A DNA stretch of 31,701 nt from a virus (Duplodnaviria > Caudoviricetes), in the IMG/VR virus record IMGVR_UViG_3300023095_000007, positions 1-31,701 of that record; one strand, 5' to 3'. A program made the position numbers and the translations under genes. Below the pieces are notes generated by a model. The model did not search any database and was not told the DNA's origin. It saw only the letters and a program-made list of their open reading frames with translations. The number at the start of each line of letters is the position of its first letter. The first letter of the stretch is position 1. Below, one piece after another: positions 21,439-30,770 of this stretch.

Positions 21439-21543
21439 GTGGGAAATAGCTGAGATGATGTATACGAATAGGGCCAGTTGAGCTAGCATAGCAACTAAGA
21501 ATGCGGCGGCTAGTACTATGCCCATGGTTTTATCTTGTTTCAT
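21433..21543 (-). CDS. 36-aa single-TM peptide (not in ORF track)
   Basis: MKQDKTMGIVLAAAFLVAMLAQLALFVYIISAISHL; TAATG coupling. Confidence 0.55.
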   Translation of the reverse strand: MKQDKTMGIVLAAAFLVAMLAQLALFVYIISAISHL

Positions 21544-21794
21544 TATTCTATGTTCTTCACTTTCTTAGGTCTCTTCGACTTGCTAATTAACCCTGCATCT
21601 TCAAGCTGTTGCATCTCTTTGTCTACATCTGCCATCATAAGGGAGTCGCCCACGACCGTTTTAATTGGACTTAGTTGTGCTTCGTACTCCACATTAATAG
21701 CTTGGATTAGCCCTGCTGACTCCTTATAGGGACGTGTTCCGAGGTATTCGAGTACTTGGTTAATAAGCTGGGTTGTGATTGTAAATTCGTTCAT
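21543..21794 (-). CDS. hypothetical protein
   Basis: ATG at 21794 with AAGGAG; 'NQVLEYLGTRPYKESAGLIQAI'. Confidence 0.7.
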   Translation of the reverse strand: MNEFTITTQLINQVLEYLGTRPYKESAGLIQAINVEYEAQLSPIKTVVGDSLMMADVDKEMQQLEDAGLISKSKRPKKVKNIE

Positions 21795-21871
21795 GATTGC
21801 TCCTTTATTAAATATGGACAACTAGTATTTGAGTGGGTGTTGGTGTGACAGAAATTGCAGTGGAAAGGCAT
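21791..21871 (-). CDS. 26-aa CCHC zinc-knuckle micropeptide (not in ORF track)
   Basis: MPFHCNFCHTNTHSNTSCPYLIKEQS = CX2CX4HX4C; AAGGAGG SD. Confidence 0.55.
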   Translation of the reverse strand: MPFHCNFCHTNTHSNTSCPYLIKEQS

Positions 21872-21919
21872 TACCTGTTTTCCTCCTTAAATGTCTTACT
21901 CTCTTTACGTGATACCATC

Positions 21920-22252
21920 TTATTTCCCCTCTTTAGTCTGGAGGGCTTGAAGCTCCTTGACGCGGTCATCAATGTAGACGAAGTGTTTTCTGTAAAGCAA
22001 GTCCTCGTATTCCTCAACCTCGTCTAAAATATTGTGTCTGAATGGCACGACTATCGTGTTATCCATTTGCTCAATGCGTTGTAACTCGTCTAAGAGTCTT
22101 TCTGTTACTCGTTGGAGGACGATTGCGTCTAACTGCTTGCGAAGTTCTGGCTCTATATTCTCTGACCACTCACGTGCTCCAACGTCTCTGTTTGCCATTA
22201 CCCAAGTAAGGAAAGTTTCTATTTTTTCTTCTGTGTCTATTATGTGAGTCAT
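21920..22252 (-). CDS. hypothetical early protein (helical paralogue family)
   Basis: 110 aa; GGAGG SD; RVTERLLDELQ. Confidence 0.7.
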   Translation of the reverse strand: MTHIIDTEEKIETFLTWVMANRDVGAREWSENIEPELRKQLDAIVLQRVTERLLDELQRIEQMDNTIVVPFRHNILDEVEEYEDLLYRKHFVYIDDRVKELQALQTKEGK

Positions 22253-22435
22253 CTAACCCTCCACCACGTAGTCTAGTACAGCTCTTTTACCGCACTTCTG
22301 ACAAATATTATAGATGAAGTAAGCGCCTTGGTGTGTAAACTCTGGCTGCTTGTCGTTTAACCTGATCGGCATAATACGTTCCGTTGACTTTACGTACTCG
22401 TGTTCACAAGGCTCCTGTTTTGTATCGGTATTCAT
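22253..22435 (-). CDS. small Zn-ribbon protein
   Basis: CEHEY...CQKCG; AGGAGG SD. Confidence 0.7.
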   Translation of the reverse strand: MNTDTKQEPCEHEYVKSTERIMPIRLNDKQPEFTHQGAYFIYNICQKCGKRAVLDYVVEG

Positions 22436-22437
22436 GA

Positions 22438-22668
22438 TTACCTCCTATTTTCTATTTCGGCTATAATTTGGTTCAATTCTTCAACATCATCTCTCTCAAA
22501 TCTCGGTGGTAGATTAACCCCATTCCTACGTAAGTTCATCGCCTTCTGTCCGACTGCCTGGGGGGTTATGCCAAACTCTTCTGCTACCTGCCAGTTAAAG
22601 TCGTTGTTCATATAAGACTCAACGAACTTTTTACTGTCTACGTAAAGCCGTTTTCTTTTATGTGGCAT
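22438..22668 (-). CDS. HTH DNA-binding protein
   Basis: WQVAEEFGITPQAVGQKAMNLRR. Confidence 0.7.
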   Translation of the reverse strand: MPHKRKRLYVDSKKFVESYMNNDFNWQVAEEFGITPQAVGQKAMNLRRNGVNLPPRFERDDVEELNQIIAEIENRR

Positions 22669-22966
22669 CTTTATTCCCTTCTTCTGATAAACTTAAAACT
22701 TTTTTCAAATCCTTGATGTATACAACTTCAGTATCGTATTCTTCACGTTCTTTCTGGTAAATATCGCTAACGCTCGGGTTATACATAGAATCAATATCCT
22801 CTCTTACTGATGCTTTTGATATGAACCTAAGAGCAATTACTTCCTCTGCCTCTACGGGTGTCAATGGCTTCAAATCCCTTGGGTAACCCATATCAGCACC
22901 ATCGCAGTATGCAGTCTCTGCTACGCGCTGGAGTATCTTATATAGCTGTTCGTCTTGTTGTGTCAT
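22658..22966 (-). CDS. hypothetical early protein
   Basis: 102 aa; coupled within the operon. Confidence 0.65.
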   Translation of the reverse strand: MTQQDEQLYKILQRVAETAYCDGADMGYPRDLKPLTPVEAEEVIALRFISKASVREDIDSMYNPSVSDIYQKEREEYDTEVVYIKDLKKVLSLSEEGNKDAT

Positions 22967-23331
22967 TTAGTGCCTTCCTCTTCTGTGGACAATAGTTTAC
23001 GCCTGCTCTCAATCCATTCACCGAGTTCATGATTAGTCACATCATCAGGAGTTTCATCGTAAATATCTATTTCTAACCAATCGAGTAGTTTCTGTTCTGC
23101 CTCTCGTACTTTTGTATCTATAATTGCTTGAATATCTTTCTTGGCCTTTTCAACGGCTTCCTCCACGTTTACAACTACCTCAATGTCTAGTTCGGGGTCA
23201 TATTTGGTTTGGTAGTTTTTCGTAAGTAAATCCATCAACACGTCATCTAGCTCAGTATTAACGTTTGATTGGTGGGCGTCGCTTGTATATTCAATAGGTC
23301 TATCGTGTGTTTTAGGGTCAAATAGGCTCAT
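22963..23331 (-). CDS. hypothetical early protein (helical paralogue family)
   Basis: ELDDVL...AKKDIQAIIDTKVREAEQKLLDWLE. Confidence 0.7.
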   Translation of the reverse strand: MSLFDPKTHDRPIEYTSDAHQSNVNTELDDVLMDLLTKNYQTKYDPELDIEVVVNVEEAVEKAKKDIQAIIDTKVREAEQKLLDWLEIDIYDETPDDVTNHELGEWIESRRKLLSTEEEGTK

Positions 23332-23336
23332 CTTAT

Positions 23337-23687
23337 TTATCCTCTACTACTTAGGTTGGTACGTTGATCTTGAAATGGCTTCATATACGATTGGATTTCT
23401 TCAAACAACTTACCTAAGACCTCAGATGACATAGACGGAAAGTCAGGTTCTAACCTATGTACCATGAGCGGTGACATTGTTATCATTAATGAGCTTGCTA
23501 ACATATAATCGTTTGTAACTTTTTCTTTCAACATCTCCTGCTGGTGGAGGTGAACAAGCTCTTTTGAATAAAGATCAAAATGTTCTTCAATATCCTTGTC
23601 CTCGACTTGAAAGCCCATCTTGTACTTAGCCATGAGTTTCCGCGTTTCCGCTTCAAAATTACTACGTGTTACTTCATTGTTTGTCAT
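23337..23687 (-). CDS. hypothetical early protein
   Basis: likely start MTNNEV at 23687 with AAGGA SD. Confidence 0.65.
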   Translation of the reverse strand: MTNNEVTRSNFEAETRKLMAKYKMGFQVEDKDIEEHFDLYSKELVHLHQQEMLKEKVTNDYMLASSLMITMSPLMVHRLEPDFPSMSSEVLGKLFEEIQSYMKPFQDQRTNLSSRG

Positions 23688-23787
23688 ACTTATCCTTTCC
23701 ACAAACATCGCATCTAATCATGAAACGTGGCAGATACTTATTATCTCCGTAGTGATGGATGCCGATCAGGCAAAGCAGCTTATGCAT
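23674..23787 (-). CDS. DUF1660-like small Zn-binding protein (not in ORF track)
   Basis: MHKLLCLIGIHHY...RCDVCGK, 37 aa. Confidence 0.6.
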   Translation of the reverse strand: MHKLLCLIGIHHYGDNKYLPRFMIRCDVCGKDKYDKQ

Positions 23788-23789
23788 TT

Positions 23790-24068
23790 TTACTTACCTT
23801 CCTTGATTTCTTTGCGTTTGGCTTTGATAACACTTTTATTAATGTAGTTGGGGTGGTTATCTATCATAGCTTCCAATTCATCAAGTAACTGTTCTTGTGC
23901 TTTGGTAACTTCGGATTGGATAAGCTTTTCAAATCTATCTGCATACTTTTGGTAAATACGCTGTTCTTCTCTGGGGTAAATCATCACATCAGATCTATCT
24001 AGCGAACGGTCTTCAACTATCGCCTGAATAATAAGACTGTGCGCTTCTTCTCTCGTAGTATCAGCCAT
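23790..24068 (-). CDS. hypothetical early protein (helical paralogue family)
   Basis: EKLIQSEVTKAQEQLLDELE; start at the TAATG overlap. Confidence 0.7.
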   Translation of the reverse strand: MADTTREEAHSLIIQAIVEDRSLDRSDVMIYPREEQRIYQKYADRFEKLIQSEVTKAQEQLLDELEAMIDNHPNYINKSVIKAKRKEIKEGK

Positions 24069-24322
24069 TACTTCGTGCCCCATAGTGATTGACGCTGCTC
24101 GATTCTGAGTGAGTTCCTATTAGCTGGATAGGTGGCATTTTCAACTCCGAGTATTCGCAGATTGATAGGTTCGTCTTCCCCAATCACATACTTATCAACT
24201 GCTTGTTTGATGGCTTTGATCGCCTGATCGATGTTTTTGTCGACCAGTTCGTTTTCACCTCTCTTATAATCAATCAACTCGTATAGTGGTTCATCTAGCT
24301 CTTTATCAAACTCTGTACTCAT
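24068..24322 (-). CDS. hypothetical early protein (helical paralogue family)
   Basis: FDKELDEPL...DQAIKAIKQAVDKYVIGEDE...RNSLRIEQR. Confidence 0.7.
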   Translation of the reverse strand: MSTEFDKELDEPLYELIDYKRGENELVDKNIDQAIKAIKQAVDKYVIGEDEPINLRILGVENATYPANRNSLRIEQRQSLWGTK

Positions 24323-24444
24323 GACTGTATCACCCCTAAAATTACAAAGGTTAATACTACTAACACTGCCCCTGAGGCCTCCATAGCTCCCTTACGTGGG
24401 GTCTGAATGTATCTTGGCTTGTAATTGATTTGTTTGCTACTCAT
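24319..24444 (-). CDS. 41-aa membrane peptide (not in ORF track)
   Basis: MSSKQINYKPRY...GAVLVVLTFVILGVIQS; overlaps both neighbours. Confidence 0.5.
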   Translation of the reverse strand: MSSKQINYKPRYIQTPRKGAMEASGAVLVVLTFVILGVIQS

Positions 24445-24649
24445 GGAGGTCTTTCCCCTTTAGGTCGTTTAGTTTCTTCTTTCGGGCTTCTACACCTATG
24501 CGGCTAAAGGCTTTCTTTTCTTCTTCGGTCATAACTCGCTTGCTTTTTTGGCCGCCAATACCACCTCTACGTTTAAAGAACATAGGGTCTAGTCTCTTTT
24601 GTTCTGCTGCGCGTACCTTAGCCGCTTCACTTCGTTTGTTTTCTGTCAT
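24437..24649 (-). CDS. basic KGG-like small protein
   Basis: FFKRRGGIGGQKS...FSRIGVEARKK. Confidence 0.6.
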   Translation of the reverse strand: MTENKRSEAAKVRAAEQKRLDPMFFKRRGGIGGQKSKRVMTEEEKKAFSRIGVEARKKKLNDLKGKDLHE

Positions 24650-24804
24650 ATTCTCTCCACCTGGGTCAATCCCTGTGTTATGTTCCTAATAATATCTTCT
24701 GAGCACTTATAGGCAATAGCTATCTCTTCGGGAGTAAAACCTACTAGAAACATCTGCTTCATGCGCTTTTTGTGCTCTGGGTGTACTTTTACTCGATTGC
24801 TCAT
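24646..24804 (-). CDS. 52-aa HTH protein (not in ORF track)
   Basis: KQMFLVGFTPEEIAIAYKCSEDIIRNI; ATGA coupling at both ends. Confidence 0.6.
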   Translation of the reverse strand: MSNRVKVHPEHKKRMKQMFLVGFTPEEIAIAYKCSEDIIRNITQGLTQVERI

Positions 24805-25181
24805 CCTAGTATCACTACTCTCTCACCATCTTCCCTTGTAACTAATTTAACGCGTCCTACTATCGGGTTATGGCCATAAACAATTTTCTCTGTCACTGAA
24901 CCACCTGAGTGTCGTTCTATCTCGGCTTTATAACGTTTTGTACGGCGTCTTAGCGCAGTGGGTGAGTATTCTATAAGACCGTACTCATGGAGCTTTCTAC
25001 GCGCTCTGGCAACTGTCTCAGCATGCATAACCCGTGTAAGGTTCCAATACAAGCTTTTGGTCTCGTCGTAACCCTGCTTTAACCACACGGCTTCTAGAAG
25101 CTTCATTTCTTCGTCTTGAACGCCAGGGTTGTCTTTTATTACCTGCAAAACGTATTGCTCGTTACTAGTAAGTTTACTCAC
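24801..25181 (-). CDS. hypothetical protein, possible winged-helix DNA binder
   Basis: VLQVIKDNP...HAETVARARRKLHEYGLI; GAGGAG SD. Confidence 0.65.
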   Translation of the reverse strand: MSKLTSNEQYVLQVIKDNPGVQDEEMKLLEAVWLKQGYDETKSLYWNLTRVMHAETVARARRKLHEYGLIEYSPTALRRRTKRYKAEIERHSGGSVTEKIVYGHNPIVGRVKLVTREDGERVVILG

Positions 25182-25281
25182 AATCCAAGCTCTCCTCTTT
25201 TTCTACTGCCGCTTCGTCAGCTTCTATAACAGCCTGGGCGCGCATCTTGTCCTCTAAAAGTTCTCTAGTCTCAAAGTCCAT
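25174..25281 (-). CDS. 35-aa acidic peptide (not in ORF track)
   Basis: MDFETRELLEDKMRAQAVIEADEAAVEKEESLDCE; GAGGAG SD. Confidence 0.5.
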   Translation of the reverse strand: MDFETRELLEDKMRAQAVIEADEAAVEKEESLDCE

Positions 25282-25354
25282 CGGTATTCTCCTCTAATAG
25301 CTCAGCTAGTTTCTCACTTAAAGGGAGGATGTTTTGGTTAAAGAAGTTAAGCAT
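25271..25354 (-). CDS. 27-aa peptide (not in ORF track)
   Basis: MLNFFNQNILPLSEKLAELLEENTDGL; TAATG coupling, AGGAG SD. Confidence 0.4.
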   Translation of the reverse strand: MLNFFNQNILPLSEKLAELLEENTDGL

Positions 25355-25836
25355 TACTTTGACGCTCCTGCCATTTTAAAGTTAAGTATGTCTTTGTTGT
25401 AATAATCGTGCACCATGAGAGAGCAAGACACTGCTTCTTCTGGTTCGAGGTATGAAGCTACATTGATGGTCTTGTTCTCGTGCCGTATAGACACTCTATA
25501 CCACTTTTTCTGTACGTAGACTCCTGGGAATATATTATTCCCCTTATAATCTGGCTTCCTGGGACGTCTGTTGTTTGCTTGCTGATCCCAGGTTGCCCAT
25601 CGTACATTTCCTGGCTCGTAGTTGCCGCTATTATCTATACGGTCAAGTGAATGTCTTGAAGTAGGTCTATCACCAACATGAAGGTAAAAAGAATTAAAAG
25701 ATTCTAACCACTCCTTGCAAACGACTATGCCACGACCACCATAGTCTCCCCACTTTCTATACTTTTGGTTATAACAGCGCTGCCTCATTGCAACCCACGC
25801 ACGATACTCTGGTGTTTTTGACATCCCATGCCTCAT
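25354..25836 (-). CDS. HNH homing endonuclease with AP2-like C-terminus
   Basis: YGGRGIVVCKEW, SLDRIDNSGNYEPGNVRWAT; FPGVY...WYRVSI...EEA AP2-like segment. Confidence 0.88.
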   Translation of the reverse strand: MRHGMSKTPEYRAWVAMRQRCYNQKYRKWGDYGGRGIVVCKEWLESFNSFYLHVGDRPTSRHSLDRIDNSGNYEPGNVRWATWDQQANNRRPRKPDYKGNNIFPGVYVQKKWYRVSIRHENKTINVASYLEPEEAVSCSLMVHDYYNKDILNFKMAGASK

Positions 25837-25842
25837 AGTCTC

Positions 25843-26001
25843 CTACGCCTCCACAATCTTATTGTTACGGTAGTCCCAACGACCCTCAGCCTTGGCTTCT
25901 TTTTCTGCTTGGGCTTTAGTGAGGATACGGTTAAAAGATACCTTAGCTTGTTCGTGCTGTTCTTTCTGTTCTTCGGTAATGTTCCATTTCAGTGTGTTCA
26001 T
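25843..26001 (-). CDS. 52-aa protein, first gene after the 26.05 kb promoter (not in ORF track)
   Basis: MNTLKWNITEEQKEQHEQAK...GRWDYRNNKIVEA; GAAAGG SD. Confidence 0.6.
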   Translation of the reverse strand: MNTLKWNITEEQKEQHEQAKVSFNRILTKAQAEKEAKAEGRWDYRNNKIVEA

Positions 26002-26029
26002 TGATAGGCCTTTCGTTGCTTATGTACTC

Positions 26030-26058
26030 ATTGTAGCATTTTCGCTTACCGTTAGCAA
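26030..26058 (-). promoter_or_regulatory. sigma70 promoter with operator-like ACGGTAAGCGAAA
   Basis: TTGCTA-N17-TACAAT with TG extension; 13-mer shared with the 28.6 kb promoter. Confidence 0.7.
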
Positions 26059-26062
26059 TAGC

Positions 26063-26092
26063 AAAATAAAGAGACCGTATGTCTACGATCTC
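26063..26092 (-). terminator. intrinsic terminator
   Basis: GAGATCGTA-GACA-TACGGTCTC followed by TTTATTTT. Confidence 0.7.
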
Positions 26093-26122
26093 ATGCTCAC
26101 CCATAAACGGTATAACTCCGTT

Positions 26123-26305
26123 TTAAGCCACTGTAACAACATAAGTTTTTCCATCTTCGTTCGTTATGTAGATATCATCAATGAATACACCCGAGTTCTC
26201 AAACCTGATATCGCGATATGGTAACACCGTACCTGACTTTACCTCAGAGTAATATCTCACGCGTATCTTCTTAGAAGGTCCGTCTAAGCTACCCATTTGC
26301 AACAT
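26123..26305 (-). CDS. small hypothetical protein
   Basis: 57-60 aa; AGGAGAGG SD. Confidence 0.55.
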   Translation of the reverse strand: MLQMGSLDGPSKKIRVRYYSEVKSGTVLPYRDIRFENSGVFIDDIYITNEDGKTYVVTVA

Positions 26306-26363
26306 CCTCTCCTGTATAAGGGTCTATTACTGGAATAAAGTAATCTGGTTTTCCGCTGTCCAT
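26289..26363 (-). CDS. 24-aa peptide (not in ORF track)
   Basis: MDSGKPDYFIPVIDPYTGEDVANG; AAAGGAG SD. Confidence 0.5.
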   Translation of the reverse strand: MDSGKPDYFIPVIDPYTGEDVANG

Positions 26364-26386
26364 TGTGTTCTCCTTTGTTATGTTCA

Positions 26387-26579
26387 TGTAGATACAGCTC
26401 GCCAGAACGCAGGAACGACCCTACTATTGCGCCTCACTCACAGGTGTCACCATGCATACTTGGGCTTTCTGACGATGTGTATTCACACGAGTTGTTAAGT
26501 ATCTATCGAGTAGAAGGCGTGACACCAATCCAGCAAGTCAGTGTAACTACCCTCTGGCGGGCCGCCACCGTTCACTACA
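26387..26579 (-). ncRNA. putative ~190-nt structured RNA (element F)
   Basis: nested stems CGCCAGAG/TTCTGGCG, GACTTGCTG/TAGTAG(G)GTC, GGTGTCAC/GTGACACC, GTGTG/CACAT. Confidence 0.55.
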
Positions 26580-26583
26580 CGGC

Positions 26584-26622
26584 AGCGTCCCTGGGAGTCG
26601 AACCCATACTTGATGCCACGCT
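26584..26622 (-). ncRNA. tRNA T-arm minihelix-like element (E)
   Basis: AGCGT...TGGG-TTCGACT-CCCA...ACGCT. Confidence 0.4.
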
Positions 26623-26646
26623 TCATACTCAATGTTAATGTACCTT

Positions 26647-26768
26647 GGTTATAAACACTGGTGAGGCGGTGATAATAGTGCCGTTCCCGAAGTCATACAC
26701 TTTCGCTATCTTTTCTATCACCTACGAGGGTCGGTATATTTCCTCTACCTCAACAGCTACCTATAACC
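26647..26768 (-). ncRNA. putative ~120-nt structured RNA (element D)
   Basis: GGTTATA/TATAACC, TGAGGT/GCCTCA, GAGG/CCTC, GGTGATAG/TTATCACC. Confidence 0.55.
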
Positions 26769-26778
26769 TGTTTACTCT

Positions 26779-26854
26779 TGGAAGCTGGGGGCAAGATTCG
26801 AACTTGCTCCCATAGGCAGGTGCACCCCCTATGGTTTACTCCGACACCCCAGCT
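26779..26854 (-). tRNA. atypical tRNA-like RNA lacking a D-stem (element C)
   Basis: AGCTGGGG/CCCCAGCT acceptor + T + CCA; GCAAG-TTCGAAT-CTTGC T-arm; CCATAGG/CCTATGG stem; no D-stem. Confidence 0.6.
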
Positions 26855-26911
26855 TATACAGTTCGTTGCCAATAGCTTTCACTATTATGGATATAAAGGC
26901 AACTTTGTTTA

Positions 26912-27130
26912 TTATAACTCTTCAAACGGCTTACAAACTATCCCGAATAACAAATGACACCATACACATGCTGTATCTATTTCTAGATCGTCTTGAACCC
27001 ATTTGTAACCGACTGTAGTTTGATAATCTTCACTGTATAGGGGAAACATTAACTGGTTGCCTTGTTTGTCTGATAATCTACGCCATTTACCACATATTTC
27101 GCACTGTAGGCGTGGATTATTTTCACTCAT
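26912..27130 (-). CDS. small Zn-finger protein
   Basis: QCEICGKWRRL...CVWC; AAGGAG SD. Confidence 0.65.
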   Translation of the reverse strand: MSENNPRLQCEICGKWRRLSDKQGNQLMFPLYSEDYQTTVGYKWVQDDLEIDTACVWCHLLFGIVCKPFEEL

Positions 27131-27140
27131 TATATACTCC

Positions 27141-27341
27141 TTATAGTTCGTTAATCTTTTTCTCTAGCCGTTGCATCATGTCCCATTGCCCTTGGTGATA
27201 TGAGTGACGGACTGTCGTGCATTCTGGTTCACAGGGCTGGACTTCATCTGTTACTAACTCCAGGAAGAGAGATTTAATGTCTTCCTTACGAGGATTTTGG
27301 TAATCTACGTCTTCTAGTATTTCATCTAATTTGCTACTCAT
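27141..27341 (-). CDS. hypothetical protein (helical paralogue family)
   Basis: SKLDEILEDV...EDIKSLFLELV; GAGGGAG SD. Confidence 0.65.
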   Translation of the reverse strand: MSSKLDEILEDVDYQNPRKEDIKSLFLELVTDEVQPCEPECTTVRHSYHQGQWDMMQRLEKKINEL

Positions 27342-27369
27342 GTCTTCTGTATCTCCCTCTTAAATTCTA

Positions 27370-27545
27370 TTAAGCGTATGGTGCTAGGCACGTCTATATT
27401 TTTTACAAACGCTTTTTGCTAGCTACGAGTCTAGAATACTAGAATAATCTCATACCATCATAGCTCATCGTATTGCGCTCTCGATTTTATTCGATGCCCA
27501 GGGTAATACTCCCTGTCGAACCGTGCCCAGCACTACTACGCTTAA
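27370..27545 (-). ncRNA. putative 176-nt structured RNA (element B)
   Basis: ~23-bp imperfect terminal stem TTAAGCGTAGTAGTGCTGGGCACG/CGTGCCTAGCACCATACGCTTAA; inner CAGGG/CCCTG, AGCTATGA/TCGTAGCT, TCTAG/CTAGA. Confidence 0.6.
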
Positions 27546-27547
27546 TT

Positions 27548-27970
27548 TTAAATGTACCCTAGTCTCTTACAGGTATTATACCATCCACTTGTCTTACAGA
27601 ATGTTCCTTGTGCGGTGTACATCTGATAGGCGTATTGGACGTTGTTTGCTGCAATCTTTAACCACTCCTCTGATGGTCGAGTGTTTCGCATATTCCCTAT
27701 AAGGTTAATTTGAAAGCATCCAACCGAGTAGTCACCTGTACGTGGGTTGTCGTTAACGCTTAATGGGTTATCACGACTTTCAATCATCATAACCGCCGTA
27801 GCTTGTTCAACGTTCCAGTCATACTTGACTATCTCGCTACTACATGCCCCAGCGTCTGTGATAGCCTCGCTGACTACCTGTGACGTTATCTGAGGCTCTG
27901 TAGCGACTGTTTCAGGCGCTTGTACTGCCACTTCTTCTTTTACAACGCTAGTGGCGGGCGTTACTGGTCT
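27548..27970 (-). CDS. lysozyme-like/lytic transglycosylase domain, probably reached by -1 frameshift
   Basis: AVMMIESR catalytic Glu, SVGCFQIN, NVQYAYQMY; frame open upstream of GTG 27931 through the slippery site. Confidence 0.75.
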   Translation of the reverse strand, partial: RPVTPATSVVKEEVAVQAPETVATEPQITSQVVSEAITDAGACSSEIVKYDWNVEQATAVMMIESRDNPLSVNDNPRTGDYSVGCFQINLIGNMRNTRPSEEWLKIAANNVQYAYQMYTAQGTFCKTSGWYNTCKRLGYI

Positions 27971-27973
27971 TTT
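27927..27973 (-). promoter_or_regulatory. -1 ribosomal frameshift signal (A-AAA + H-type pseudoknot)
   Basis: CTA AAA, 5-nt spacer, S1 GTAACGC/GCGTTGT, S2 GCCACT/AGTGGC. Confidence 0.65.
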
Positions 27974-28164
27974 AGTGAAACTTGGATTGAGTTAACGACC
28001 TTGCTTTGTGTGTCTGTGAGGACGTTCACTGCTTGGAAGTATCCACCAATGAGACCGATCAATACCCCGACAGCAAACAACACGGCTGTGATAATGCGAC
28101 GGTTCTTCGCCTTCTCTTCATCGAGTAGGTCTTGGATTGTTAATTTCTCTTTAGGTGCTTTCAT
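27961..28164 (-). CDS. single-TM membrane anchor protein
   Basis: RRIITAVLFAVGVLIGLIGGYF TM after a basic N-terminus. Confidence 0.75.
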   Translation of the reverse strand: MKAPKEKLTIQDLLDEEKAKNRRIITAVLFAVGVLIGLIGGYFQAVNVLTDTQSKVVNSIQVSLKDQ

Positions 28165-28188
28165 TTTGTTTCTTCTTTCTATTTTGTA

Positions 28189-28343
28189 TTAAGCGTACGG
28201 ACTTCCCCAGCACCGTGTCCCTAACCGCCTGTCCGCAGAGCGAACCCTGTCGGATGCCTGATAGTTTGTGCCAGCGGTCTTCCTTAGCCAAGTCGCGTAC
28301 TTGGGAACGGTCAGCTGTTTGCCAGGGGAATCTGTACGCTTAA
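28189..28343 (-). ncRNA. putative 155-nt structured RNA (element A)
   Basis: TTAAGCGTAC/GTACGCTTAA, TTCCCC/GGGGAA, CTGACCGT/GCGGTTAG, CCAAGT/ACTTGG, CAGGG-TTCG-CTCTG. Confidence 0.65.
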
Positions 28344-28355
28344 TTGTTAATGTGT

Positions 28356-28494
28356 ATTCGACCGTATGAGATAGCAGTAAAGGGTAATTTCCGCAGACAG
28401 ACCTTGAGTCTCTGTTGTGGTTGCCCTGTGTTTCCAGTATCAAGTAGAAACGTACCCCTAGAGCTATCGTTACTGCTAACTACTACAGTCGAAT
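28356..28494 (-). ncRNA. putative 139-nt structured RNA (element G)
   Basis: ATTCGACTGTA/TACGGTCGAAT, TAGCAGTAA/TTACTGCTA, GGGGTA/TACCCT, TTTCTA/TGGAAA, AGAC/GTCT. Confidence 0.6.
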
Positions 28495-28607
28495 CTTGTT
28501 TGTTAAATTGTTAAACCTTGATCTGCCCTATTACGTTAGCTTATGGGCTGGTGCGTTTTTCCCGATCTTGGTTCTTCGTTGTATGGCCTTTCGTTGGTCA
28601 TGTATTA

Positions 28608-28636
28608 ATACTAGCACAACTTTCGCTTACCGTCAA
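28608..28636 (-). promoter_or_regulatory. strong sigma70 promoter with operator-like ACGGTAAGCGAAA
   Basis: TTGACG-N17-TAGTAT with TG extension. Confidence 0.75.
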
Positions 28637-28646
28637 TACATAAACG

Positions 28647-29003
28647 TTATGAAATGTCTTTTAGTGCCTGTTTCCAGATAAGAGCTTCTAACTTCCGATC
28701 CTTTTTCTTATAGGTATTTGACTGCACAACTAACTGATCCACCATGGCTTTACCTTTTCGTTCCACTTGCCATTGATAGTGTTCTGCTGGGTGGCTGGTG
28801 AAATACTGATGACAGCCATAGCAGAGTGCATCTGCGTTCATAGGTTCAAACCTAGTACCTTCTTTGCCTCTCCCCATAAAGTGAGAACAATGCAGCCCGT
28901 TAGTAGGCGGTGTGAATTGTGAGCCGCATCTCTGACACGTCCAGTTATCGCGTGTCCTCACGAATAGTGAAAATGCTTTATCAGCGGCGTCTATCTTAAC
29001 CAC
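28647..29003 (-). CDS. ninG: NinG/Rap-like recombination endonuclease
   Basis: DKAFSLFVRTRDNWTCQRCG...HCSHFMGR...TRFEPMNADALCYGCH. Confidence 0.8.
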   Translation of the reverse strand: MVKIDAADKAFSLFVRTRDNWTCQRCGSQFTPPTNGLHCSHFMGRGKEGTRFEPMNADALCYGCHQYFTSHPAEHYQWQVERKGKAMVDQLVVQSNTYKKKDRKLEALIWKQALKDIS

Positions 29004-29554: not shown

Positions 29555-30159
29555 TGTTTCTCCTTATACTTGTAGTTAGACGTAATATGTTTCCACGTCT
29601 TGCCGCTTTTTATGTTGTCTATTGTTTGAGGCACTACATTGTAATCTGCGGCGATTAATCTGTGTACCCTCTTATCTTCCATTATGAGTAGAACCTGTGA
29701 CTCTCTTAATTTTGCCATAGAGCCTTTTTCTCCAATAGGACCAGTCCCGTCTAATACAATATCTTTGCTGTTATCCATAGCGCTTCCCCAATACAGATGT
29801 CTGTAATTAAAGCACGAAGGATTGTGACAAATGATAGGCTTGTGTAAAGCAAACGTCTTATCCTTTGGTGGTGGCCCCACTCTCACGCGCAAAGCCATGT
29901 TATGGACTCTCACCTTCCTATTATTTATGCTAAGCATTCCATATCCGAGGCTATTTTTGTTGTACTTCCAGATAACACATTTGTCCGTTTCTACTCTGAT
30001 AGAATCCTCAAAGAACTTCTTCGGTTCTCCCACAGGCTGTCTGTACGGCTGATAGTTTACATCTCCGTGTCTGCTTAGCCTAGATAAGTGCTTAGAGCAC
30101 AGCTTAAGACGAGACGGTTTAACTCTGCCGAAACAGCCGTCTATAGAGCACGTTAGCAT
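29551..30159 (-). CDS. HNH (HNH_3-type) homing endonuclease with C-terminal HTH
   Basis: CVIW...GYG...ALH...CHNPSCFNYRHLYWGSAMDN; AKLRESQV...IAADYNV...GKTWKH. Confidence 0.85.
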   Translation of the reverse strand: MLTCSIDGCFGRVKPSRLKLCSKHLSRLSRHGDVNYQPYRQPVGEPKKFFEDSIRVETDKCVIWKYNKNSLGYGMLSINNRKVRVHNMALRVRVGPPPKDKTFALHKPIICHNPSCFNYRHLYWGSAMDNSKDIVLDGTGPIGEKGSMAKLRESQVLLIMEDKRVHRLIAADYNVVPQTIDNIKSGKTWKHITSNYKYKEKQ

Positions 30160-30770
30160 TATGTTTCGTTATCCAACGCATCAGCAATGGCATCTGCGTC
30201 ATTTAACGTGTCTATTGTCTCTTTGCCAAGCACCTTTTTTATAAACGCCTTCATCTGATCGGTATCTACATAGTCCTGTGCAATCATCTGCTCTTTGATC
30301 TTACTCTTAGCTCGTGTTAGTATTTCCGCGTTGCCTGCTGCAGACTCTTCTGTACGGTTACGTATAACAACTGGTTCTTTCTGTCGAGCCTGGGTTGCCT
30401 TGTTCCCGTCGTCGTCATCATCTGCCACAACTCCAAGGACTGACATAACGCCATAGCGACGCGCGTATGTGGTGGCGCTTCCTTGGCTTTGTGGGTCGTT
30501 CTTCACTAATAGGAGAGGTTGGACGTCCTCAATGTACTGTCCTGATTCGTGTAAAAGAATAGTACGCATTGCACTATCACCGTCTAAGTTCGTAAGGAAC
30601 TGACTAATAGCTAGCTTGTGTTTTGCTAGTAACGGTTGTACGTTTGCCATCACCTCGTTAAGTGGGGCATACTTGCTTTTAAAGAACGGGTTACTTGCTG
30701 ATTTCGCTACAGGTACAAGATCTGCTTGTAGTGCTACGAGTGCTGGTGCTAATTTATCTAGCTCTGTCAT
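30159..30770 (-). CDS. erf: ERF-family single-strand annealing protein
   Basis: NPFFKSKYAPL, TILLHESGQYI, PQSQGSATTYARRY, DDDDGN. Confidence 0.9.
   Translation of the reverse strand: MTELDKLAPALVALQADLVPVAKSASNPFFKSKYAPLNEVMANVQPLLAKHKLAISQFLTNLDGDSAMRTILLHESGQYIEDVQPLLLVKNDPQSQGSATTYARRYGVMSVLGVVADDDDDGNKATQARQKEPVVIRNRTEESAAGNAEILTRAKSKIKEQMIAQDYVDTDQMKAFIKKVLGKETIDTLNDADAIADALDNET

Follow-up and report, generated by a model that had tools for sequence, protein, structure and literature searches.

What kind of element keeps its ends constant while everything between them changes? The question is raised by two cassettes, A and B, in the genome of a phage. The window analysed here is the whole of a linear virus record (31.7 kb, with an estimated completeness of 86%), in which all annotated genes lie on the minus strand and include those for a major head protein, a terminase, several HNH proteins, a NinG-like protein and an Erf-like annealing protein. 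A and B are part of a row of small ORFs and non-coding stretches at 26.3-28.6 kb, downstream of a promoter-like site at 28636. The features of the row and its surroundings are given below in minus-strand order, together with the state of each slot in L005, which belongs to the complete genome of a relative (G205).

30159..30770, minus strand: Erf-like single-strand annealing protein (phrog_2324, E 1e-46), presumed candidate engine of cargo exchange
28647..29003, minus strand: NinG/Rap-like gene, marking the upstream side of the cassette row; relatives in 4/6 compared phages
28608..28636, minus strand: sigma-70-like promoter TTGACG-17-TAGTAT with extended TG, predicted by consensus scan only; heads the cassette row and is kept in L005
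28506..28514, minus strand: boxA-like motif TTAACAATT, upstream of cassette E
28356..28494, minus strand: cassette E, with like stalk geometry and a different, covarying outer helix (z -4.5); same outer arms and unrelated cargo in L005
28342..28350, minus strand: boxA-like motif TTAACAATT that continues into B's left arm
28187-28345, minus strand: cassette B (159 nt), starting AATTAAGCGTA and ending TACGCTTAATA; outer 11-bp arm in common with A, its own inner stem and a multi-hairpin cargo
27961..28164, minus strand: 67-aa ORF with a hydrophobic segment; in many relatives a comparable small ORF comes after the cassette
27548..27931, minus strand: 127-aa lysozyme-like (SLT_3) ORF between B and A (PF18896, E 1e-6)
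27544..27552, minus strand: imperfect boxA-like motif TTTAAAATT that overlaps with both the stop codon of the SLT ORF and the beginning of A; it resembles the TTAAAAATT form of host 16S leaders
27368-27547, minus strand: cassette A (180 nt), starting AATTAAGCGTA and ending TACGCTTAATA
27522..27547, minus strand: left arm of A (outer 10-11 nt, loop GTA, inner GTGCTGG...)
27393..27521, minus strand: cargo of A, with four predicted hairpins (z -2.4) and no homologue among the other interiors
27368..27392, minus strand: right arm of A (...CTAGCAC, loop CA, outer TACGCTTAATA)
26779..26857, minus strand: tRNA-like element (slot C) with acceptor-like stem, T-arm and 3' CCA, no D-arm pairing, found only below default thresholds; L005 holds other cargo
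26648..26767, minus strand: end-paired cassette F; same outer arms and a different tRNA-like interior in L005
26505..26633, minus strand: end-paired cassette D with a T-arm hairpin; same outer arms and different cargo in L005
26386..26486, minus strand: end-paired cassette D2, absent at the corresponding place in L005

A and B are separated by 639 nt (819 nt from start to start), a gap that contains the 67-aa ORF, for which Pfam and PHROG searches returned no match, and the SLT_3 lysozyme-like ORF, which had no relatives in the genome collections searched. Elsewhere in the window, two promoter-plus-leader stretches (25997-26058 and 28575-28636) are alike, with 76% identity over 42 nt.

As had been claimed in an earlier note on this DNA, A and B have identical ends: both 11-nt ends were confirmed on the minus strand, and the four exact matches to TTAAGCGTA in the 31.7 kb window are the arms of these two cassettes. 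At one mismatch the window holds 14 matches to TTAAGCGTA where 8.6 are expected, so that loose versions of the arm motif are not significant. The same note had named two elements, C and E, without coordinates, as having weaker versions of the arms; the further stems at 26386-26860 and 28356-28494, among which these two may lie, are indeed real (z -2.3 to -4.5). The earlier picture of an 11-nt arm likewise stands for the shared outer ends and fails for the extent of the stem, which reaches ~24 bp in A, with B having only the outer 10-11 bp in common with it and lacking the GTAGTG core. When folded on the minus strand and compared with shuffles, both cassettes were unusually stable (z -7.2 for A and -4.0 for B). 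The fold of A prefers this strand (-67.2 kcal/mol, versus -55.9 on the plus strand), and that of B does not discriminate between the strands (-62.8 minus, -64.4 plus). A flank-joining helix of ~20 bp or more, of the leader-trailer stalk type, is present on the transcribed strand.

The interiors proved to be as unrelated as the earlier note had proposed. Their alignment scored at the level of dinucleotide shuffles (p 0.31-0.66 under three scorings), which shows that A and B are not diverged duplicates; a MAFFT alignment of the two looks suggestive, yet its score is also that of shuffles. The cassettes match neither a tRNA model (ARAGORN) nor any Rfam covariance model. Across the window, Rfam gave no match at gathering score and chance-level matches only at E values up to 10, and ARAGORN found 0 genes at default settings and mostly noise at relaxed thresholds. 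In 40 further locus scans with Rfam and tRNA models no match lay in a cassette, the yield being real tRNAs outside the cassettes and three weak matches.

We then collected the wider family by longer single-arm scans of viral, metagenome and genome collections, retaining sequences with both arms at no more than three mismatches each. This gave 51 arm-bounded sequences, two of which span two tandem cassettes, and hence 49 single cassettes, from phages and prophages, with arms of ~26 nt (L132, which is identical to A, was counted once together with A). By BLAST, the arm-bounded sequences fall into 44 interior clusters that are mutually unrelated. The consensus of this main family consists of a 10-bp outer helix, a GTA/CA loop (48/49), and a 13-bp inner helix containing a fixed G-U pair (46/49), figures for arm conservation that are partly built in, since one arm always served as the query. 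The earlier note's expectation that related phages would have fixed ends and variable interiors was borne out by these longer arms; the 9+9-nt pattern that it had suggested is too short for the purpose, as 29 of its 35 viral matches lie outside the family and only six within it (five with the longer ends of A and one, L005, with B). Its phrase of a common handle on variable cargo is thus supported both by the 44 interior clusters and by the change of cargo at fixed slots.

Single-arm matches in genomes were mostly due to chance (24/26 in one set), although in another set of 26 three of the five inspected were cassettes. When 16 of 21 left-arm-only loci were rechecked, two had a perfect right arm, two a divergent one, three ended at the contig end and nine were chance-like. 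An inner-arm scan of host-order genomes gave 31 matches, of which 30 were fetched and three were stalks; GenBank phages yielded nothing above noise, and among 26 matches to B one was real, the contig of L005 itself.

Family cassettes range from 65 to 672 nt in length, the smallest being 65-78 nt in total. Their cargo is mostly non-coding, with candidate small RNAs and tRNA T-arm pieces, and also includes short genes, among them 64-aa ORFs without family matches and, in two cassettes, an HNH gene behind a promoter-like TGTGATATAAT motif. The cassette phenomenon is real, widespread and surprising.

Several arrangements were observed alongside the main family. A nested scaffold, in which an outer stalk contains three inner conserved helices that each close a variable insert, is found at L038:4366-4621, L099:958-1224, L106:3798-4097, L108(-):2085-2415 and L116(-):1632-2070, and L107 and L114 seem to contain further ones. 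Long-stalk cassettes also abut in rows of four or five, 0-105 nt apart, at L137:2143-2951, L055:1925-3007, L114:1653-2249 and L108(-):1940-2647. Several larger viral contigs (L006, L009, L013, L014 and L016, 3001-3167) contain a further element, which has TTAAGCGTATCT...AGATACGCTTAA as its bounds and longer inverted flanks. At L025:2895-3066 and L026:1005-1176 a strong one-strand interior fold (z about -6) lies between 9-nt arms without inner arms. In L112 (9-1547) a cassette stands upstream of an array of 11 tRNA genes, and in L084 and L081 the cassette row starts at a host/phage gene boundary, which in L084 comes just after two host tRNA genes.

Several lines of evidence suggest that the arms behave like RNA stems. 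Outside the loop, G-U outnumbers A-C on the left-arm strand by 35 to 4 in 23 main-family stalks and by 54 to 22 in 47 other stalks, a bias toward the transcribed strand; the scoring was strand-symmetric, 70 of 100 unique stalks were kept after locus, score and non-coding filters, and the counted pairs are not independent of one another. In 36/40 cases the left arm is the upstream one with respect to coding direction, and in L005, L037, L107, L340 and L362 different complementary pairs have taken the place of the outer helix. Within the interiors, GNRA/UUCG/CUUG tetraloops were found nine times (2.3 expected, 1 antisense), and T-arm hairpins in 6/84 interiors (0.06 expected, 0 antisense). Most interiors are not unusually stable, with a mean z of -0.5 and 3/43 below -2.

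What precedes the stalks is also informative. A boxA-like motif is exact before B and E and imperfect before A, where it is a putative boxA. From its position and from what is generally known of boxA, we take the TTAACAA(TT) motif to be one, putatively. With up to one mismatch, TTAACAA precedes 36/100 stalks, versus 6/100 antisense and a 6% background, and 32/49 main-family cassettes; it is lacking even at one mismatch in 64/100 stalks and 17/49 main-family cassettes.

The same combination recurs in genomes of the presumed host order. In 20 of 26 of their 16S leaders TAGTGY comes no more than a few bases after a boxA-like motif and usually has a GCACTA partner downstream of the 16S gene, and in 8 of 10 23S loci TTAACAA stands 87-167 nt before the 23S rRNA. 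By eye, the stalk begins right after TTAACAA in the 23S leaders L282 and L284, and several host 23S stalks contain GCTAGT/ACTAGC. In the phage arm TTAACAATT is followed by GTAGTGCTGGT, whose pairing partner is ACTAGCAC-CA-TAC, and the arm so contains both the 16S and the 23S host core, the 23S likeness being one found by inspection. The distance from boxA to TAGTGC is 8 nt in the phage arm versus about 3-5 nt in host 16S leaders, boxA itself being paired there. None of 31 host ACATTAACAATT sites is followed by a short cassette stalk. RNase III was identified in 39/41 and NusB in 40/41 host-order genomes, mostly as neighbouring genes; these tallies, and no other claim made here, include the unpublished genome G037, without which they become 38/40 and 39/40. 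In most of the host-order genomes listed, nusB and rnc are ~0.6-1.2 kb apart.

Other features of the host loci were noted in passing. Several host-order 16S genes have no 23S gene directly after them. In L233 (G120) and L218 (G096), after the 16S gene, a boxA-like motif immediately precedes tRNA genes and the 5' fragment of a tRNA is duplicated, possibly as an integration scar. The 16S trailers of L216 and L218 hold a hairpin, CTGGTAG(T/C)AAG...CTTG, that is closely like the inner arm of the phage cassette.

Cassettes were found in Saccharibacteria-labelled records (L084/L209, L206 and L333) and in host-order genomes (G122 and G280), and the phages that bear them likely infect Saccharibacteria. 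We infer the same host for the phage of the window, with the reservation that the best two NinG relatives in genomes are labelled Gammaproteobacteria (71%) and Saccharibacteria (64%) and that one cassette record, L081, is labelled Chloroflexi. Among six compared phages, whose heads include both P22/SU10-like and Mu-like types, no protein family is common to all, the maximum being 4/6, which makes a host factor more likely as the reader of the stems.

Taken together, these data favour a processing or binding site at the base of the stem, one of the possibilities raised in the earlier note, as the best reading. More specifically, and judging from sequence, we think it fairly probable that the row consists of phage RNA cassettes whose processing stalks are of the rRNA type: a boxA-like motif and a leader-trailer-like stalk, putatively cut by host RNase III, would carry exchangeable cargo. 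Transcription of the row would start at the promoter at 28636, NusB/NusE would hold the boxA-like motif while the left arm waits for the right arm, and host RNase III would cut at each stalk, releasing the end-paired cargo as individual RNAs that are likely stable. In A, if the enzyme made a staggered cut across the GUA/CA loop, the product would be an end-paired RNA with a 2-nt 3' overhang ending ACCA. Counting against this reading are B, with its missing GTAGTG core and its lack of strand preference, the cassettes and stalks that have no boxA-like motif, the different boxA spacing, the ordinary stability of most interiors and the outcome at the 31 host ACATTAACAATT sites. In E. coli, RNase III cuts in the leader-trailer helix, whose leader strand is proposed to wait, with NusB bound to boxA, for the trailer to emerge (PMC10250234). 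Internal loops can restrict RNase III to one strand and leave protective stems (PMC1540722). A weak E. coli RNase III consensus is quoted as WNAGWG...CWCUNW (PMC4357697); the host 16S core conforms to it, as does the phage core apart from mismatches.

The strongest competitor accepts the arms as RNA stems and denies that they are RNase III substrates: they might instead be a protein-binding handle, a folding insulator or, in the main family, a mimic of the tRNA acceptor (GCUGG.../...CUAGC-ACCA) matured by RNase P and 3' exonucleases. We regard this as rather unlikely, though deserving of attention. The GTA/CA loop and the G-U pair, kept in 48/49 and 46/49 cassettes, are held more tightly than a length-reading nuclease needs, and the main arm sequence as a whole is more conserved than RNase III would be expected to require, although the search patterns impose part of that conservation; against this, the layout of boxA followed by a stalk matches that of rRNA leaders. 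In favour of acceptor mimicry in particular are the ACCA with which the right arm meets the loop, the T-arm pieces among the cargo and the CCA-ended tRNA-like element in the row, but CCA is found at the loop in 8/47 stalks of other arm types versus 8 antisense and 6.0 shuffled, and B and E have none there. As a general arm end, CCA was accordingly rejected: it is a trait of the main family only, at control level (8/47) elsewhere.

How the cargo changes could be followed by comparing the window with G205, which has the promoter, the leader and B in common with it. B is identical to its L005 counterpart at 157/159 nt, and the two changes (A-U to G-U and G-U to A-U) fall in the same UUCG hairpin and keep its pairing. 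In slot E the same outer arms enclose unrelated cargo in the two phages, slots F and D likewise combine common outer arms with different cargo, slot C combines common flanks with different cargo, and slot A is occupied in L005 by another cassette with other arms. Five slots (E, A, C, F and D) thus retain their flanks or outer arms in the relative and differ in cargo. The E cargo of L005 recurs in L114 under different arms (90% over 91 nt). Beyond the row, window 21482-27362 and G205 have a series of conserved linkers (27-87 nt) in common, between which the small protein genes differ; since neighbouring genes are thus also swapped between short linkers, short-homology exchange needs no dedicated enzyme. 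Matches to Erf were found in the window, G205 and G206, and to RecA in G209. The cargo is likely exchanged at the DNA level through short homologies; in our model it would be replaced by recombination through 25-35 nt homologies at the arms, and we infer that Erf-type annealing proteins do the swapping. A copying of cargo from host rRNA/tRNA loci was considered and rejected, as the only matches were of 14-16 nt and at chance level.

It is improbable, by comparison, that a phage or host recombinase uses the arms as DNA sites for cassette exchange or in a MITE-like system (of the attC, dif or terminal-inverted-repeat type, with a TTAA target). Such sites would account for near-perfect 26-nt inverted repeats with TTAA bounds and for cargo changing between arms, the same arms are found in phages with different head types, hairpins of single-stranded DNA tolerate G-T too, and host XerC/D-type enzymes acting in trans remain candidates. 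However, five phage records (four complete) contain no tyrosine recombinase, and a Pfam search of 107/211 longer ORFs from five relatives detected none of the domains of an integrase, resolvase, DDE transposase, RT or Ro60, the one match of this sort being an IS1595 zinc ribbon. The empty TTAA sites for which the earlier note had proposed to look were not seen at the A slot of five relatives, no inverted cargo was seen (21 shared segments in the same orientation versus 1 in the opposite one), the outer TTAA arm is freely replaced when pairing is kept, and ordinary genes nearby are swapped between short linkers. The note's suggestion of a DNA inverted repeat with a dedicated recombinase is therefore poorly supported. 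A MITE or TTAA-target IS was rejected on similar grounds, with 44 unrelated interior clusters, stalks clustered in one region per genome, a varying outer arm and no DDE match in the 107/211 ORFs.

Still less probable, in our view, is a decayed tRNA or stable-RNA cluster in which the stalks survive and most cargo is functionless filler shuffled by recombination. The low folding z-scores of the interiors, the presence of tRNA pieces instead of whole tRNAs, the tiny interiors of the 65-78 nt cassettes and the landing of an HNH gene in two other members of the family are all in keeping with decay, but B is 99% conserved in L005 amid differing neighbour genes, with changes that are neutral to pairing, tetraloops are in excess on the sense strand, and the three-slot nested scaffolds are conserved. 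The earlier likening of B to a retron msr-msd, with an RT elsewhere, is scarcely credible: B does combine long end pairing with internal hairpins, and the window is only 86% complete, but an RT is absent from all five phage records (four complete, including the B-carrying G205), B has no Rfam match, and the same outer arms enclose ORFs and tRNA pieces elsewhere.

If the cassettes are processed as we propose, the question becomes what the released RNAs do. Speculatively, the cargo may be a fast-changing set of small RNAs, some of them tRNA-like, that act as decoys or regulators against host functions. T-arm pieces, together with an RNA-repair trio in G208, hint weakly at tRNA-related decoy or repair roles; this trio (L328:984-4204) consists of adjacent RNA ligase, polynucleotide kinase-phosphatase and RlaP-like genes, an RNA-repair set. 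A phage-borne Cpn60 chaperonin-like gene was also seen, at L320:9837-11438 (G206). In its broadest form, which we offer tentatively and consider possible but doubtful, CPR phages of unrelated virion types would have a standard boxA-tethered, host-processed RNA cassette, in some cases a scaffold with three slots, and would fill it from a large, exchangeable stock of small RNAs. These would serve as decoys or effectors, tRNA pieces for instance diverting host defences that cut tRNA or sense RNA. Such a stock, if it exists, would parallel at the RNA level the cassettes of accessory genes.

Phage small RNAs tend to be discovered as single conserved families, whereas here the handle is conserved and the RNA variable, so that the cassettes would escape any covariation screen that relies on conserved interiors. 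Searching with the arms leads to dozens of candidate small RNAs whose ends can be predicted. If our reading holds, phages borrow the host route of rRNA maturation (boxA, Nus factors and RNase III) for accessory RNAs, and the stalks are a first set of substrates for RNA processing in the hard-to-culture Saccharibacteria; a natural stalk that releases arbitrary cargo could double as an expression scaffold.

Set against known systems, the parts are already familiar: boxA, RNase III stalks, phage use of host RNase III and linker-bounded gene exchange. For tandem cassettes with common arms, nested multi-slot scaffolds and a large pool of unrelated cargo, we found no description in Rfam or in the open literature searched. 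Inverted repeats are tied to exchangeable or mobile DNA in integron attC sites, pdif modules and MITEs such as Correia elements, and transcripts of the last are RNase III substrates. Unlike these, the phage cassettes show no recombinase, empty site or inversion, their hairpin encloses the cargo, and their interiors are unrelated, unlike those of MITE copies. Retron msr-msd elements have, as B does, end-pairing inverted repeats around hairpins, but the complete B-carrying genome G205 has no RT. From the tRNA clusters of T4 and T5, host RNases cut stable RNA species and tRNA-like molecules out of one transcript; these stable RNAs are few conserved species that, unlike the cassettes, are not known to have common terminal arms or a cargo pool.

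The T7 R1.1 site has the geometry of a lower stem, a loop and an upper stem. Like the cassettes in our reading, T7 R1.1 and the lambda nut-N leader are cases in which a phage uses host RNase III on internal-loop stems. Such loops can confine cutting to one strand (PMC1540722), and lambda nut uses boxA and NusB (PMC10250234). The T7 and lambda sites differ in having a small closing loop, in lying between genes and in enclosing no exchangeable cargo. In the pre-rRNA leader-trailer helix (rrn), as in the cassettes, a boxA-like motif stands directly before a long helix that encloses RNA, and host rRNA leaders have both this motif and the TAGTGC/GCACTA core in common with the phage arms. Unlike the rRNA helices, the phage cassettes enclose 15-620 nt of RNA that is unrelated from copy to copy and sometimes holds an ORF, and they are arranged in tandem rows.
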